Below, in pieces: positions 3,156 to 49,271 of a stretch of DNA of 64,000 bases. Source of the stretch: an uncultured Gammaproteobacteria bacterium (GTDB taxonomy: Bacteria; Patescibacteriota; Patescibacteriia; Patescibacteriales; GWC2-42-12); NCBI GenBank assembly GCA_964467155.1, contig CAYXNZ010000001.1, positions 4,070-68,069 on the forward strand, in the 5' to 3' direction. Under the pieces are notes generated by a model. The model did no database searches and was not told the DNA's origin. It was given only the letters and a program-made list of their open reading frames with translations. Each line of letters begins with the position of its first letter. Positions within the stretch are counted from its first letter, which is position 1. A program made the position numbers and the translations under genes.

Positions 3156-3800
3156 ATGATTATTACTTGGTTGGGGCATTCATGTTTTAAAATTCAAGAT
3201 AAATCTGGTTCTGATGGAGTAATTGTGGTGACTGATCCATTTGATAAAGCAGTTGGTTTAAAAGTGCCTAATTTTGAAGCAGATATTATTACAGTTAGTC
3301 ATGATCATCATGATCATAATAATGTAAAAGCTTTACGAGGCAATCCTTTTATCGTTAAAGATGCTGGTGAATATGAAACAAAAGAAGTTTTTGTGGAAGG
3401 AATTGAAGCTTATCATGATGACAAACAAGGCAAAGAAAGAGGCAAGAATATAATTTACCGGATAGATATTGATAATATTTCTATTGCTCACTTGGGAGAC
3501 TTAGGACATGTTTTAGATAATAAACAGTTAGAAGGTTTGGCTGGAACGGATATTCTTTTGATTCCAGTTGGAGGAAAATATACCCTTAACGCAAGTAAAG
3601 CTGTGGAAGTGGTTAATCAAATTGAACCGCGAATTGTTATTCCGATGCATTATAAAACACCAGGTTCTAAAATAGATATTGATACGGCAGATAAATTTAT
3701 TAAAGAACTGGGTATAAAACCAACCGAAGAAGAAAAGCTAAAAATAAGTAAGAAAGATTTGCCGCAAGAAGATGTGGAGTTAGTGATTTTAAAATCATAA
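3156..3800 (+). CDS. MBL-fold metal-dependent hydrolase (UPF0173-like)
   Basis: Motifs MIITWLGHSCF and SHDHHDHNN match the beta-lactamase-fold histidine pattern, at about 214 aa. Confidence 0.8.
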   Translation: MIITWLGHSCFKIQDKSGSDGVIVVTDPFDKAVGLKVPNFEADIITVSHDHHDHNNVKALRGNPFIVKDAGEYETKEVFVEGIEAYHDDKQGKERGKNIIYRIDIDNISIAHLGDLGHVLDNKQLEGLAGTDILLIPVGGKYTLNASKAVEVVNQIEPRIVIPMHYKTPGSKIDIDTADKFIKELGIKPTEEEKLKISKKDLPQEDVELVILKS

Positions 3801-4412: not shown

Positions 4413-7139
4413 ATGCCAAAGAAGAAAGAAAAACAACCAAAACCAAAACCAAAAAAGAAAATTGTAAAACAGCCAGCCAAGAAAAAAGTAGTAAAACCAG
4501 TGGCTAAAAAAACAGTATCAACAAAACCAGTTACTAAAAGTACCAAGAAAGAAAAACCAGAGATAATAAAAGAGAAAACAGAAACAAAGAAAAAGGCTAT
4601 TGAAATAGACAAAAAATTAGTTGCTGAAGAAATAACTGAAGAAGCAAAAGAAGGTACAGTTAGTCGAATCGTAAATGGCCGAGAAAAAACTGAATATGGA
4701 TTAGTTCAATCCCAACCAATCGTTGAAGAAATGAGACGGTCTTATTTGGATTATGCTATGAGTGTTATTGTGGCTCGTGCTTTGCCTGATGTTCGAGATG
4801 GACTTAAACCAGTTCATCGTAGAATACTTTATGCTATGTGGAGTGTTGGTTTGAGAGCCAATGCTAAGTTTCGTAAGTCAGCTACAGTTGTTGGTGAAGT
4901 TTTAGGTAAATATCATCCACATGGCGATTCAGCTGTTTATGAATCAATGGTTAGAATGGCACAGGATTTTTCCATGAGACATCCTTTAGTTAGGGGTCAA
5001 GGTAACTTCGGTTCAATGGATGGTGATAGAGCAGCGGCTATGCGTTATACCGAAGCCAAACTAGCACCGATTGCTGAAGAGATGTTGTTTGATATAGAAA
5101 AAAATACAGTTGATTTTTCTCCAAACTTTGATGGATCTCACCAAGAGCCAAGAGTTTTACCAGCAAAATTACCTAATCTGCTTTTGAACGGAGTAATGGG
5201 TATTGCAGTCGGTATGGCAACTAATATTCCGCCTCATAATTTGAGAGAATTAGTTGGGGCAGTTATTTATTTATTAGAAAAACCTGAAGCAACAGTTGAG
5301 GAATTAATCCAATTTGTCAAAGGACCTGATTTTCCAACTGGAGGAATTATTTATAGTCAGAATGACATTAGACAGGCTTATTCAACTGGTCGAGGTGGAG
5401 TTGTTATTCGTGGACAAGCGGAGATAGTAGAAGCAAAAGCAGGTGGTTTTCAAATTATTATTTCCGAGATTCCTTATCAAGTCAATAAGGCGAATTTAGT
5501 TGAAAAGATAGCTGACTTGGTCAAGAATAAAAAATTAGAAGGCATAAGAGATTTGCGTGACGAATCAGATAAGGATGGTGTACGAGTAGTTATTGATCTC
5601 AAAAGAGATGCTTTTCCAAAAAAGATATTAAATAGTTTATACAAACAGACTCAGTTGCAGGAAACTTTTCATTTCAATATGTTGGCCTTGATTGATGGTA
5701 TTCAGCCAAAGGTTTTGAATTTGAAAATGATTTTGGAAGAATATATTAAACATCGAGAAGAAGTCGTGAAACGTCGTACTCAGTTTGATTTAGATAAAGC
5801 GAAAAGCAGAGCGCATATTTTAGAAGGTTTAATGATTGCTTTAAATAATATTGATGCGGTTATAAAAACTATTAAAGCTTCCAAAGATCGTGAAATTGCT
5901 AAAGTAAATTTAATAAAAAAGTTTAAATTAACTGAGAGACAGGCAATCGCTATTTTAGAAATGAAGCTAGCCACTTTGGCCAACTTAGAAAGACTAAAAA
6001 TAGAGAACGAATTAAAAGATAAAAAAGTTTTAATTAAAGAATTAGAAGCAATATTGAAATCAACTAAGGAGATGAGAGCTATTATTAGAACAGAAATAGA
6101 AGCTTTAGTTGAAAAATTTGGCGAGGATAGACGAACCAAAGTAATTGCTCATGGAGTCAAAGATTTTTCGGTTGAAGATTTAGTACCAAACGAAGAAACA
6201 GTTGTAGCTATGACTCGTGATGGTTATATTAAACGAGTACCAACAGATACTTTCAAAGTTCAAGGACGAGGTGGTAAAGGCGTGATCGGTCTAACGACCA
6301 AAGAAGAAGATATGGTTATGTTCTTGTTTACAACAATGACTCATAATGACATTTTATTCTTTACTACTAGCGGACGAGTTTTCCAATTAAAAGCTTATGA
6401 AATACCGCAGACAACGAGAACTGCTAAGGGAACACCAATCGTAAACTTTTTACAGTTATCTGGTGGAGAGAGTATTTCAACCATTTTGCCACTAGATAAG
6501 ATTTCAAAGAGTAAATACCTTTTCTTTGCAACTGAAAAAGGATTAGTTAAGAAAGTAAAGATTGAAGCTTTTGACAATGTCCGACGTTCAGGTTTAATTG
6601 CTATCAAAATAAAAGATAATGATAGATTGATTTGGACAAAACCAACTGATGGCAATGATCATATTGAATTAGTGACAGCTGAAGGTCAGGCAATTCGTTT
6701 CAAGGAAGCCAATGTTAGAGATATGGGTCGTGGTGCAGCTGGTGTCAAAGGAATTCGTTTGAAAAAGAAAGAGGACGCAGTTGTTGGCATGGGAGTTATC
6801 AAAAACGATAAGGAAAAAATGAAAAAATATCAGGTCTTAGTTATTACTGATAATGGTTTTGGCAAAAGAACACCATTAAATTTATACAAAGTTCAAGGAC
6901 GAGGTGGTTCAGGAGTAAAGACATCCAAGGTTACAACTAAAACTGGCCGATTGACTCAAGCCTATGTTGTCAATACGGAAACAATGAAAGATCAGGATTT
7001 AATAATAATCTCTGAAAAAGGCCAAGTTATTAGATTGCCTTTCAAAGCAGTTAATCAACTTGGGCGTGATACTCAAGGGGTTAGACTGATGAGATTTAAA
7101 GATAAAGACGATAAGGTAGCTTGTGTTACTTGGGTATAA
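4413..7139 (+). CDS. gyrA: DNA gyrase subunit A with a lysine-rich N-terminal extension
   Basis: Contains [39 protein letters not shown] and the catalytic AAMRYTE. C-terminal beta-pinwheel repeats (QGRGGKG twice) are present. Confidence 0.95.
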
Positions 7140-10361: not shown

Positions 10362-10448
10362 ACCCCATGAATATTTTTATACCAAAATTACTATAAAATT
10401 AAAATAAAAGAATTAAGTAAATTTTTATTAAAATAGTTTTTTTTATTT

Positions 10449-10472
10449 CTCTCCCTTCATTGAAGGGGGAGA
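10449..10472. repeat. CCCT/AGGG-type hairpin (family 4)
   Basis: tctcccttcattgaagggggaga is the same stem type as the hairpins at 15443-15515 and 15816-15900. Confidence 0.5.
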
Positions 10473-15815: not shown

Positions 15816-15900
15816 TCCCCTCTTTAATAAGGAGGGGATGAAGGGGAGGTAAACAACACGTAAAACCCCACCTCAATCCTCCCCTTAGTAAGGGGAGGAA
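15816..15900. repeat. family-4 CCCT/AGGG hairpin pair
   Basis: ttcccctc-tttaataa-ggagggga and tcctcccc-ttagtaa-ggggagga. Confidence 0.6.
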
Positions 15901-15939
15901 TAAATATTTTTATTATTTAGTTTAAATAATATTTGATTT

Positions 15940-37046: not shown

Positions 37047-37115
37047 TGTCATTCCCGCGAAAGCGGGAATCTATTTTTTAAATTATTCTGGATTCCCGCT
37101 TTCGCGGGAATGACA
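37047..37115. repeat. family-1 element between porD and porA
   Basis: tgtcattcccgcgaaagcgggaatc ... ggattcccgctttcgcgggaatgaca forms a near-perfect 25-nt inverted repeat. Confidence 0.85.
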
Positions 37116-45745: not shown

Positions 45746-46420
45746 TTATTCTAATAAAAATTTTTTAAATTCGTTTTTTTGTTGTTTTGAATCGTTTATA
45801 ATTATATTTGTTAATTTTTCGTATTCTTTTGTGTTTTTAAATTGATCGAGAACAATATTTTTATTACAGAGATTACCTTTTCTTAAATTTAAATAATCCA
45901 TATAACTAGACCACGGCCAACTTGTAGCTTTAGTAATATTGTGAATTTCCGAATTGCCGTTAATGTAGCAAGAGACTTTTTGTAATTGACCGTCTGATTT
46001 TATTTCAACAGCTTTAAATGTTCCCTGAAACAATGAGCCTGATCGATTATGTTTGTTGTTAAAATATCTTGTGTAGCCATAGCCTAATTTGTGCATAAAT
46101 TTTGTTATTCCCTCGTTGATAGATTGCTGGACTAATAAATGGAAATGATTTGGTAAGAGCGAATAGCAAATTATTTTTACCAAAGGAATCTTTTTAGAAG
46201 CTAAGCTACTACAAAAAGAATGTTTTTGTAGTAGCTTAGCTTCTTTATCTTTTAATTGTTTTAAGCGATAAATGCTTTCGATTGGATTAATATTATTAAA
46301 TTCACGCAAGCTAATTAAAAATCTTAAATAATCATTTTTATCAAGAAAAATGTTACGTTTATCTACGCCTCGGTTAAAAATATGATAATAGTTATCTGTT
46401 TGAAATTTAATTTTTCTCAT
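45746..46420 (-). CDS. IS200/IS605-family Y1 (HUH) transposase, RAYT-like
   Basis: The start is moved to MRKIKFQ (46420). It has the HUH motif LLPNHFHLLV, a C-terminal Tyr context (SCYINGNSEIH), and WPWSSY. An in-frame hairpin repeat lies at 46196-46244. Confidence 0.75.
   Translation of the reverse strand: MRKIKFQTDNYYHIFNRGVDKRNIFLDKNDYLRFLISLREFNNINPIESIYRLKQLKDKEAKLLQKHSFCSSLASKKIPLVKIICYSLLPNHFHLLVQQSINEGITKFMHKLGYGYTRYFNNKHNRSGSLFQGTFKAVEIKSDGQLQKVSCYINGNSEIHNITKATSWPWSSYMDYLNLRKGNLCNKNIVLDQFKNTKEYEKLTNIIINDSKQQKNEFKKFLLE
46196..46244. repeat. family-3 hairpin (22-bp perfect stem) inside the RAYT-like gene
   Basis: agaagctaagctactacaaaaa / gaatg / tttttgtagtagcttagcttct. It has the same arms as 49149-49193. 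Confidence 0.9.
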
Positions 46421-46443
46421 CGCAAGACGTTTGGTTGAATTTT

Positions 46444-46452
46444 TGCTATAAT
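46444..46452 (+). promoter_or_regulatory. extended -10 element TGcTATAAT
   Basis: tgctataat lies 26 nt upstream of ATG 46478. Confidence 0.35.
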
Positions 46453-46477
46453 CTAAGTATAACATTAAATAAAAAAT

Positions 46478-46942
46478 ATGTTTACAAAAAGAACAATTAC
46501 TTGGGCAATCGTGATAATTATAATTTTAGGTTTGACAGTTTGGCTAGTGCCAAACATAATAAAATACAGAAGTGCAGTCCAGGCAAGCTCAGGTTTTCCA
46601 TATCAGATTGGATTAACTAAAGTGGTGATAATTCCTTGTTTTACTATTGGAACGCCACCAGTATGTGTTGGTGGCACTTTGTGTACCGTAAAGGATGCTG
46701 CGACTTGTACATTGTATTCAGATGTTTCAGGAATGCCAGCTGGCGGTATGGGCGAGAAAGGACTTTTTTTAAATACCGCTATAACTAAAACTGGTTTAAT
46801 ATCTGGTGGGCAATTGATTGCTGGAGGTACATCTCCAGTTTTAATGGATAATGGAGTTTTAGCTTCGGTTGGTGGAGTTTCTTATGCTGTGTCCAATAAA
46901 GTAAATCAAACGATTGATTTTGTGGTTGCCTTATTTGAATAA
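46478..46942 (+). CDS. hypothetical membrane-anchored secreted protein
   Basis: It has an N-terminal TM helix and a Gly/Cys-containing extracellular part. No family was recognised. Confidence 0.45.
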   Translation: MFTKRTITWAIVIIIILGLTVWLVPNIIKYRSAVQASSGFPYQIGLTKVVIIPCFTIGTPPVCVGGTLCTVKDAATCTLYSDVSGMPAGGMGEKGLFLNTAITKTGLISGGQLIAGGTSPVLMDNGVLASVGGVSYAVSNKVNQTIDFVVALFE

Positions 46943-46946
46943 AATT

Positions 46947-47846
46947 ATGGATATATATCAACAAACATTAGAACTGTGTAAACAGTATAATATTAAACCT
47001 GCTCGTTCCAAAGGGCAGAATTTTTTAATTAAAGAAGAAGTTTACAATAATATTATTGAAGCAGCTGATTTGAAAAAAGATAATATTGTTTTGGAGATTG
47101 GACCTGGCTTGGGTTTTTTAACAACCAAATTAGCTGATAAAGCAAAACAGGTAATAACAATAGAACTAGATGATAAATTAGCAAAGTATTTAAAGTTTAG
47201 TTTGGAGATACAAAAAATAAAGAATGTTGAAATTATAAACGAGAATATTTTAGATATTGAAATTGAAAAGTTGAAAGTTAAAAATTTTGAATATAAGATT
47301 GTTGCTAATTTGCCATATAATATCACTTCTATTTTTTTGCGCAAATTTTTATCTTTAAAAAATAAACCAAACACAATGGTTTTGATGTTGCAAAAAGAAG
47401 TAGCAGAGAGAATTTTAGCCAAACCAGGCAAAATGAGTTTACTGGCTGTGTCAGTTCAATATTATGCTGAGCCAGAAATAATTGACTATGTCCCAGCTAA
47501 TGCTTTTTGGCCAGAGCCTCAAGTAGATAGCGCAATAGTTAAGTTGAAAGTCAAAAGTCCCTCCAATTCGGCGGGCAGGCAAAAGTCACCCGCCTGCCAA
47601 GCAAGCTTGCGAACGGGCAGGAAAGTTAAACAGGTTGGTGTGGATAAGGAAAGAGATTTTTTTAGATTAATAAAGTTTGGTTTTAGCTCAAAACGAAAGA
47701 TGTTGAAGAATAATTTATCTGTTGGGTACAAAATAACCCAAGAATTAGCAGAAAATAAACTAAAACAAGTAGGTTTTGACCCAAAAATTAGAGCACAAGA
47801 ATTGTCAGTTGAAGGTTGGGTTAAATTGTTTGGAGAATTTAATTGA
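46947..47846 (+). CDS. rsmA: 16S rRNA (adenine1518/1519-N6)-dimethyltransferase RsmA/KsgA
   Basis: The start is moved to MDIYQQT (46947). SKGQNFL, the motif I sequence LEIGPGLGFLT, NLPYNITS and PQVDSAIV are present. It contains a 25-codon repeat-derived insertion. Confidence 0.9.
   Translation: MDIYQQTLELCKQYNIKPARSKGQNFLIKEEVYNNIIEAADLKKDNIVLEIGPGLGFLTTKLADKAKQVITIELDDKLAKYLKFSLEIQKIKNVEIINENILDIEIEKLKVKNFEYKIVANLPYNITSIFLRKFLSLKNKPNTMVLMLQKEVAERILAKPGKMSLLAVSVQYYAEPEIIDYVPANAFWPEPQVDSAIVKLKVKSPSNSAGRQKSPACQASLRTGRKVKQVGVDKERDFFRLIKFGFSSKRKMLKNNLSVGYKITQELAENKLKQVGFDPKIRAQELSVEGWVKLFGEFN
47547..47630 (+). repeat. family-2 element inserted in frame in rsmA
   Basis: acccgcctgccaagcaagcttgcgaacgggcagg (47589-47621) matches 14071-14104. 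It is bounded by aaagtcaaa / aaagttaaa exactly 75 nt apart, and encodes SPSNSAGRQKSPACQASLRTGRKVK. Confidence 0.75.
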
Positions 47847-48601: not shown

Positions 48602-49126
48602 ATGAATAAAAAAATCAATAATATAGTTTCTGTCGAAACAATTGAAAGTAAAATTTTACATATTCGTGGACAGAAAGTTATTACAGATAGAGATTTAGCT
48701 AATTTTTATGGGGTTGAAACAAAAGTATTAAACCAGGCGGTTAAAAGAAATATGGATAGATTTCCTGCAGATTTTATGTTTCAATTGAATAAGATTGAAA
48801 CTGATGTACTGGTCACAAATTGTGACCGGTTTAGAACATTAAAACATTCTTCAAGTTTGCCCTATGCTTTTACCGAACAGGGTGTAGCGATGTTATCAAG
48901 CGTTTTGAAAAGCAAAAGAGCAATTGGTGTGAACATTGCTATTATGAGAATATTTGTAAATATTAGAAAATTTATATCTTCTTATGATGGGTTAGCTAGA
49001 AAAATAGCAGAATTAGAGAGTAAATACGACATAAAGATAAGTGAAATTATGAATATAATTGATTATTTAGTTAAAGATAAAGAGATAGAAAAAGATAAAA
49101 AAGAGATTGGCTTTAAAACAAGTTAG
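48602..49126 (+). CDS. ORF6N (KilA-N-related) DNA-binding domain protein
   Basis: IRGQKVITDRDLANFYGVETKVLNQAVKRNMDRFPADFMFQL ... PYAFTEQGVAMLSSVLKS matches the ORF6N pattern. Confidence 0.8.
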   Translation: MNKKINNIVSVETIESKILHIRGQKVITDRDLANFYGVETKVLNQAVKRNMDRFPADFMFQLNKIETDVLVTNCDRFRTLKHSSSLPYAFTEQGVAMLSSVLKSKRAIGVNIAIMRIFVNIRKFISSYDGLARKIAELESKYDIKISEIMNIIDYLVKDKEIEKDKKEIGFKTS

Positions 49127-49148: not shown

Positions 49149-49193
49149 AGAAGCTAAGCTACTACAAAAACTTTTTGTAGTAGCTTAGCTTCT
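49149..49193. repeat. family-3 hairpin, intergenic copy
   Basis: agaagctaagctactacaaaaa / c / tttttgtagtagcttagcttct, with arms identical to 46196-46244. Confidence 0.9.
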
Positions 49194-49271
49194 AGTATTA
49201 ATTAGGAGAGGGGAAGCGAACGAAGTGAGCGGGGTGAGGTAATATAGATTGAACATTTAATTTTAAAAATG

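Follow-up and report, generated by a model that had tools for sequence, protein, structure and literature searches.

In a stretch of 64 kb from contig CAYXNZ010000001.1, which was analysed at its full length and is referred to as the window in the following, the open reading frame (ORF) at positions 45746 to 46420 of the minus strand encodes a Y1/HUH enzyme resembling the RAYT proteins and carries a perfect palindrome within its reading frame. From a comparison with orthologous genes we conclude that this hairpin is probably (with a rough probability of 0.7) the cognate DNA element of the enzyme, residing at a site that is permissive throughout the gene family. It is as paired DNA that the element is selected or maintained, and it is associated with the gene family at four fixed positions. 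Copies of the same gene evolve in concert, and the peptide that the palindrome encodes is unconstrained and disordered. The gene itself is best explained as a domesticated, vertically inherited RAYT-like Y1/HUH enzyme of a Patescibacterium, acting on single-stranded DNA (ssDNA).

An in-frame palindrome with a single distal copy

The palindrome at the site that we call IN1 (46196-46244) consists of two arms of 22 nt each (46196-46217 and 46223-46244), which are 100% complementary and separated by a loop of 5 nt. On the coding strand it is translated as EAKLLQKHSFCSSLAS (residues E60-S75), which in the structural model covers the C-terminal end of helix aB together with a disordered loop ahead of strand b2. 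The original prediction, which was made from the letters of the sequence, had described this ORF with its HUH and tyrosine motifs and the perfect in-frame palindrome, and the sequence agrees with it at these coordinates. An arm search likewise confirmed the identical pair of arms that had been reported from an intergenic region at 49149-49193 (arms 49149-49170 and 49172-49193, loop of 1 nt). This is the sole copy outside the Y1 gene in the 64 kb; it is located 2.9 kb away from the gene and 22 nt past the stop codon of a gene with an ORF6N domain (48602-49126). No arm matches beyond these four were found when the window was scanned with up to 3 mismatches, and 0 of 100 shuffled sequences gave any. 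As ssDNA, the IN1 and the distal hairpin are predicted to fold with -22.9 and -22.4 kcal/mol, respectively (z = -8.7 and -9.3), and none of 200 shuffled sequences was as stable.

Outside the window, a scan for the exact arms gave 0 matches in the contigs of species-representative genomes, among which the window's own genome is not included. Six loci matched in metagenome contigs, only one of which (L085, Ga0210057_1002264, positions 5722-5776) is a real hairpin, the remaining five being single arms within unrelated sequence. The L085 hairpin consists of the window's identical 22-nt arms with a loop of 10 nt and lies just upstream of murB, with no Y1 gene within 13.8 kb. Its contig belongs to a different Patescibacteria-like genome (GC content of 39.8% vs 33.2%) and has no other DNA similarity to the window. 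An Rfam search gave no match near the gathering score.

Palindromes at four fixed positions of the gene family

The survey is based on 80 orthologous loci from species-representative genomes, namely the best 80 of 552 confirmed matches, a sample which favours close relatives. Both anchor motifs were present in 78 genes (77 orthologues and the window gene), which underlie the counts given below and derive mostly from genome bins of Patescibacteria, with some organism labels that look unreliable. Hairpins were detected with a simple ungapped score, and a palindrome was considered strong at a score of at least 9 with at most 1 mismatch. IN1 was defined as the segment between the NRG and the HUH motif, and a stretch of equal length after the HUH motif of the same genes was used as a control.

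Alignments revealed that the homologues share a hypervariable stretch exactly at IN1. A palindrome is present at this site in 42 of the 78 genes, compared with 2/78 for the control stretch. When the hairpin centres were plotted relative to the HUH codons, four sharp peaks stood out in the histogram, with hardly any hairpins in the rest of the ORF. These peaks lie immediately ahead of the start codon, at IN1 (-90 to -31 nt), at a second in-frame site termed IN2 (+210 to +239 nt) and immediately behind the stop codon. There are no hairpins between the HuH and the Y motif. IN2 follows the helix with the catalytic tyrosine and precedes the (K)SSW motif; its translation is typically ...LG..(S/P)K..., and it is occupied in 23/78 genes, including L007, L010, L014, L016, L019, L024, L044, L047, L070 and others. 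The window gene has no equivalent of IN2 and carries only the IN1 copy. Taken over all genes, 30 have a palindrome at IN1 only, 11 at IN2 only, 12 at both sites and 25 at neither. Flanking palindromes are even more frequent, with at least one occupied flank in 63/78 genes and both flanks occupied in 42/78, and some genes possess four copies, i.e. upstream, at IN1, at IN2 and downstream.

The length of the protein varies with the occupancy of IN1. The segment from NRG to HUH has a median of 59 amino acids (aa) in genes without an IN1 palindrome and of 64 in genes with one, and it measures 71 in the window. A comparison with orthologues lacking the extra residues, which the original prediction had proposed, gave the corresponding picture: palindrome-free orthologues are short by about 12-16 residues exactly where the window protein has KEAKLLQKHSFCSSLA.

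The same element inside and outside of the gene

The internal palindromes usually match the flanking palindromes of the same gene and differ between genomes. In 30 of the 42 genes with an IN1 palindrome, a string of at least 12 nt of this palindrome recurs identically in the 150-nt flanks of the same gene, compared with 6 of 504 cross-locus controls, and the corresponding numbers for IN2 are 17/23 and 3/184. In three loci that were read directly (L020, L074 and L011), one palindrome recurs ahead of the start codon, within the reading frame and behind the stop codon. Where a locus has two paralogues, their palindromes differ from one another. The assumption that the hairpin family may be the cognate substrate of the enzyme thus gains strong comparative support from these comparisons of gene and flank. 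For the idea that the enzyme also mobilises the other palindromic families of the window we found no support, given that paralogues sharing a locus each have their own palindrome.

A recurrent foot among the palindromes of the family is (C)ACTTRG...CYAAGT(G), and loops of 0-1 nt are common among the palindromes of the orthologues. A constant orientation of the copies ahead of, inside and behind the gene, as at the ends of IS200 elements or in REPINs, was considered and rejected, since loop orientation varies from locus to locus.

Perfect palindromes with 0-1 nt between the half-sites, which in many orthologues precede the start codon by 5-40 nt, could also be double-stranded operators for a dimeric regulator, with the in-ORF copies as extra operators. 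The Y1 protein might even serve as the regulator through its helical C-terminal tail, since proteins of subclass 2.1, which share the motifs of this protein, have a C-terminal tail resembling a helix-turn-helix (PMC6006769). However, the arms reach 20-28 nt and are hypervariable among close relatives, which is unlike half-sites, copies are also found after the stop codon and at two sites within the ORF, and a Pfam scan of the Y1 protein gave no helix-turn-helix domain. We therefore regard operators as a very improbable explanation.

Some of the long palindromes have arms that are near-palindromic themselves (AGAAGCTAAACTTCT in L082 1433-1481; CACTTGGACTCCGGGTTTCCAAGT in the upstream flank of L047), and the long palindromes with such arms (L047, L082 and window 46196-46244) resemble inverted doublets of a shorter unit, similar to REPINs.

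Rapid turnover with conserved pairing

The five closest orthologues for which DNA was fetched (58-71% identity) all have perfect or near-perfect IN1 palindromes with arms of 15-25 nt, which are mostly unrelated in sequence. Examples are ACCTCTAAGAGGTCA/TGACCTCTTAGAGGT in L094, AAAGGGACCGAGTCCCTAAA-t-... in L083 and 18-nt arms built on GGTTCGACCGCTT in L081; L095 and L082 contain long versions that are akin to the palindrome of the window. In the alignment of the latter three, i.e. window, L095 and L082, 10 of the 22 pairs have changed on both sides and 0 on one side only, and 98.5% of the cells are paired. No shuffled control equalled these values, and registers that were slid against each other were paired to about 40-50%. 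In L081 and L083, the right arm extends into the conserved (E/V)PL codons, as though the palindrome had expanded outward.

G-T or G-U intermediates are absent and loops of 0-1 nt are numerous, both of which point to a palindrome at the DNA level rather than to a hairpin in the RNA. This bears on an explanation at the mRNA level, according to which the 22-bp stem slows ribosomes or invites a double-strand-specific RNase and thereby holds a potentially harmful nuclease at a low level, irrespective of whether the enzyme recognises the hairpin. Indeed, the RNA around IN1 is predicted to fold with -41.5 kcal/mol (z = -7.8), the palindrome stays at IN1 despite the turnover of its sequence, and genes of the RAYT type are as a rule host genes present in one copy (PMC5581495). 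Such a role would not account for the lack of pairs changed on one side only and for loops of a size better suited to DNA palindromes, nor for the occurrence of the same sequence ahead of the start codon and behind the stop codon with the loop in either orientation. In addition, the sense strand has no T-run after the stem, and 25/78 orthologues lack any internal palindrome. We consider this explanation unlikely.

The same data are difficult to reconcile with a one-off recent hit, i.e. a REP-like mobile palindrome, or one resembling miniature inverted-repeat transposable elements, that landed in frame and has an incidental relation to the enzyme. Recent copying is suggested by the 100% identity of the arms with those of the copy at 49149, and a one-off event would also fit the shorter IN1 segment of palindrome-free orthologues. 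Moreover, a ksgA-like gene of the window has an in-frame GC-rich, partly palindromic block as well, so that in-frame insertions do occur in this genome. Nevertheless, the survey largely refutes a single hit, to which we assign a very low probability: IN1 is occupied far more often than the control stretch and in all five of the closest relatives examined, a second fixed in-frame site exists, and most internal palindromes match their own flanks. The 10 compensated pairs of the lineage shared with L095 and L082 furthermore imply that this palindrome lineage is old at IN1. The original view that the gene itself had been "hit" is too narrow, since IN1 is occupied in more than half of the genes, each with its own sequence.

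The enzyme and its inheritance

The protein of ORF 45746-46420 comprises 224 aa, counted from MRKIKF with the stop codon included in the coordinates, and contains the motifs PNHFHLLV, SCYINGN and WPWSSY. Its assignment to the Y1/HUH family, for which a profile search had been suggested, was borne out by Pfam, with PF01797 (Y1_Tnp) scoring 35.6 bits at a cut-off of 23 (E = 1.1e-8). The HUH motif is encoded at 46139-46147 (H92-F93-H94, CAT TTC CAT on the minus strand) and lies on strand b3, and on the coding strand the IN1 palindrome ends 48 nt upstream of these codons. Y152 (SCYINGN, helix aD), the putative catalytic tyrosine, is encoded at 45965-45967 (TAC on the minus strand). In an alignment of 116 sequences, H94 is invariant and H92 nearly so; Y152 is nearly invariant in the same alignment and invariant in alignment A4. 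The catalytic residues of the Y1 protein are intact and conserved. RAYTs of class 2 have a Y motif of the form Y---NP; the Y motif of the window protein is YINGNS, and many orthologues have YINGNP, YINLNP or YIHLNP instead.

An AlphaFold2 model built on 116 homologues reached a mean predicted local distance difference test (pLDDT) value of 93.2. It comprises b1 (residues 11-18), aA (28-40), aB (50-64), b2 (81-88), b3 (92-99, with H92 and H94), aC (104-123), b4 (136-140) and aD (143-154, carrying Y152). Residues 65-80 have low pLDDT values, with 69-72 below 50, and form the sole poorly predicted stretch before the extreme C-terminus. As the palindrome segment encodes this predicted disordered aB-b2 surface loop, the protein is likely to tolerate whatever peptide results. 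The top match of the model in the PDB according to Foldseek is 4er8_A, the Escherichia coli RAYT in complex with a REP hairpin (E = 6.7e-7, template modelling score of 0.68 on the target), followed by structures of ISDra2 and then IS608 TnpA. A sequence-profile search of the PDB with the Y1 protein gave no match, and the link to RAYT and TnpA comes from the fold search. From this we conclude that the ORF encodes a Y1/HUH enzyme, the predicted fold of which is nearest to that of a RAYT bound to a REP hairpin.

A tblastn search of the window gave no second Y1 gene, i.e. the gene is single-copy in the 64 kb. More than 3000 homologues of similar length were found, and the few with organism names are from Patescibacteria. 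An identical protein is encoded on nine contigs from several samples, and the four of these loci that were read back have the same DNA as the window, including the hairpin. Two orthologous contigs, L081 and L095, are long enough to show the gene order. L081 shares with the window the genes for a major facilitator superfamily protein, a TSP3-repeat protein, the Y1 protein, a 154-aa protein, KsgA and a further TSP3-repeat protein, and L095 shares the downstream half of this order. Between L081 and the window the Y1 proteins are 71% identical and the neighbouring proteins 70-86%. This similar divergence of the Y1 protein and its neighbours fits a vertically inherited host gene.

The conserved gene order also argues against an insertion sequence of the IS200/IS605 type, in which hairpins at the ends would bound a mobile unit and transposition would have left the internal copy as a by-product. 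Most orthologues do have hairpins 0-40 nt from both gene ends, some loci contain two paralogues, and the HUH/Y1 fold also matches the TnpA proteins of IS608 and ISDra2. However, the TnpA proteins of this type are about 150 aa long with a Y...Q motif and belong to multi-copy mobile elements with imperfect, strand-specific end hairpins, none of which applies here: the protein has about 224 aa with Y...N(P/S) and WSS motifs, the window contains one copy, the gene of the window lacks end hairpins altogether, and the paralogues have diverged, each with a different palindrome. A mobile unit of this kind is hence highly improbable.

Between the Y1 gene and the gene for the 154-aa protein lies a divergent spacer (window 46421-46477; L081 4242-4317, L083 1017-1092, L094 upstream of 1043), which is about 97% identical across three genomes, with flanking proteins that are only about 70% identical. 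This spacer may represent an ultra-conserved promoter or operator. As it can be translated as MLYL(D/N)YSKNSTKRLA, gene callers extend the ORF to 239 aa, choosing the upstream ATG at 46465.

Proposed mode of action

The following scenario would account for the distribution of the hairpins. The enzyme, or gene conversion or template switching driven by the hairpin, would act mainly at its own locus, where it would repeatedly install and homogenise copies of the palindrome, and these copies would survive only outside the ORF or in the two permissive loops. In the genome of the window, the flanking copies would have been lost, and one copy would have spread to the position 2.9 kb away. For the protein itself, the internal copy most likely plays no role. 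Its most likely effect would be to keep the enzyme and the hairpin genetically linked, and it may also damp the expression of its own gene; that the internal copy has a regulatory or some other function is rather doubtful.

A number of points weigh against our interpretation of the hairpin as the cognate element. Recognition of the hairpin by the Y1 enzyme, and likewise its binding and cleavage, are inferred. RAYT hairpins normally flank the gene, and this expectation did not hold in the window, which has two copies of the palindrome in total and none in either flank of the gene: the stop codon (45746-45748) adjoins the start of the next gene (45742), and the 57-nt upstream spacer holds no palindrome. 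The arms of the window hairpin begin with AGAAGC, so that the 5' GT[AG]G foot is absent, and GTAG is found inside the arm only. Furthermore, the NCBIfam equivalog for RAYT (REP_Tyr_transpos) remained below its cut-off (32.2 bits vs 80). Copies more than 400 nt away from a Y1 gene are rare, with 11 sites in 869 kb of orthologous loci, which means that the elements are not high-copy REPs in the DNA sampled. The varying orientation of the loops is unexpected for a strictly strand-specific substrate. Finally, recurrent insertion and a single old insertion followed by conversion both fit the data, and the survey does not establish a function for the internal copy.

A more far-reaching reading is that the in-ORF hairpins are a working part of a Y1 system of Patescibacteria that has not been described so far, rather than tolerated passengers. 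Up to four hairpins would then split the gene into N-terminal, catalytic and tail modules, and the enzyme would act on ssDNA hairpins for self-regulation, for co-inheritance and co-evolution of enzyme and hairpin, or for the exchange of modules between paralogues. The fast and perfectly compensated turnover would result from the activity of the enzyme at its own locus. We regard this reading as tentative and on the whole unlikely.

Relation to known systems

Y1 enzymes bind ssDNA hairpins and cleave and rejoin the DNA beside them, and RAYTs act in this way on their cognate REPs (PMC8266576, PMC6006769). In-frame REPs inside RAYT genes have already been published for another subclass and position, namely for tnpAREP subclass 2.4 of Cyanobacteria and Bacteroidetes, the genes of which contain REP insertions that keep the frame (Quentin, Siguier, Chandler & Fichant 2018, PMC6006769). 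Both there and here, the coding sequence of a Y1/HUH gene includes, with the frame intact, copies of the palindrome that also flanks the gene, and the variable region of subclass 2.4, which is located on the protein surface (PMC6006769), corresponds to a loop of low confidence in our model, in which the internal palindrome equals the flanking one. The family described here nevertheless differs in site, motifs and hosts. The palindromes are located 31-90 nt before the HuH motif (IN1, between aB and b2) and 210-239 nt after it (IN2, past the Y helix), the motifs of subclass 2.4 are NH[IFV]H, WQ and YIxNNP compared with NHFH, FQ (LFQG) and YINGNS plus WSS in the window protein, the foot is (C)ACTTRG and not GT[AG]G, and the hosts are Patescibacteria.

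The resemblance to the REPtron of RAYT/TnpAREP (YafM of E. coli, PDB 4ER8) consists in the best structural match, the single-copy syntenic host gene and the genome-specific hairpins that bracket the genes of the family, with each paralogue having its own. The differences are the equivalog score far below the cut-off, the missing GT[AG]G foot, the unflanked gene of the window and the rarity of dispersed copies, which number tens to hundreds per genome in REPtrons. With TnpAY1 subclass 2.1 (Bertels group 1, TIRYT) the family shares NH[YF]H, FQ, Y..(L)NP, an SS tail and the length of about 238 aa (Table 1 of PMC6006769), as exemplified by L074 with YIHLNP and RWSSY; this resemblance is judged by motifs and length and not by the profiles of those authors. 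However, subclass 2.1 was reported to lack REP-like hairpins nearby (PMC6006769), and here 63/78 genes have them.

In the literature that was searched, we found no paper linking RAYT, REPIN or Y1 transposases with Patescibacteria or the Candidate Phyla Radiation. Rickettsia palindromic elements (RPEs) are in-frame palindromic repeats of about 100-150 bp that occur in many unrelated genes and are tolerated in surface segments of the proteins. RPEs are not known to have a cognate enzyme. The palindromes of the Y1 family are likewise in-frame repeats in protein-coding genes; however, they measure 21-53 nt and are tied to the gene of their presumed enzyme.

The family described here represents a compact case for studying how RAYT-type enzymes are of use to their host and how enzymes and hairpins stay matched, because the hairpins are almost wholly confined to the gene and occupy four fixed positions, two of them in frame. 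They change fast with perfect pairing, and recognition, cleavage and self-regulation could be tested with a small protein and a few oligonucleotides. The family also extends REP/RAYT-like systems to the reduced genomes of Patescibacteria. For annotation, it serves as a warning that 10-20 hypervariable residues in these proteins are imposed by a palindrome in the DNA, not by the function of the protein.

Surroundings of the distal hairpin and further palindromes

Both hairpins of the window are flagged as intrinsic terminators by a pattern scan, which we rejected in either case. For the in-ORF hairpin, a T-run is present solely on the antisense strand. The T-run of the distal hairpin is confined to the minus strand, where it follows a gene that already has a terminator-like hairpin of its own. 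The ORF6N-domain gene (48602-49126) and the distal hairpin lie just past the end of the gene order that is shared with L081 (L081 2103-2119). Genes with ORF6N domains are often found on mobile elements. The large neighbouring proteins beyond the end of synteny, with 636 aa in L081 and 2521 aa in the window, are unrelated to each other.

The in-frame block mentioned above for the ksgA/rsmA-like ORF of the window (46914-47846, plus strand) measures about 75 nt, lies at 47556-47632 (...SPSNSAGRQKSPACQASLRTGRKVK...) and is rich in GC and palindromic in part, and the RrnaAD gene of L081 harbours a different palindrome, CCCCTCTCCTAA/TTAGGAGAGGGG, at 3350-3400. These in-frame palindromic blocks of ksgA-like genes resemble the Rickettsia-type elements. 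A further family of palindromes is based on CTCCCCTTA / TAAGGGGAG (e.g. TCTCTCCCTTCA-t-TGAAGGGGGAGA) and is represented in the window at 10448-10472, 15875-15901 and 49203-49214, the last of which is a half-site located directly past the distal hairpin; related copies are found in L081 at 59-81, 115-137 and 3360-3383. Finally, the window contains a perfect inverted repeat of 25 nt at 37047-37115, TGTCATTCCCGCGAAAGCGGGAATC, with its partner 19 nt off and a GC-rich mini-palindrome in each arm.

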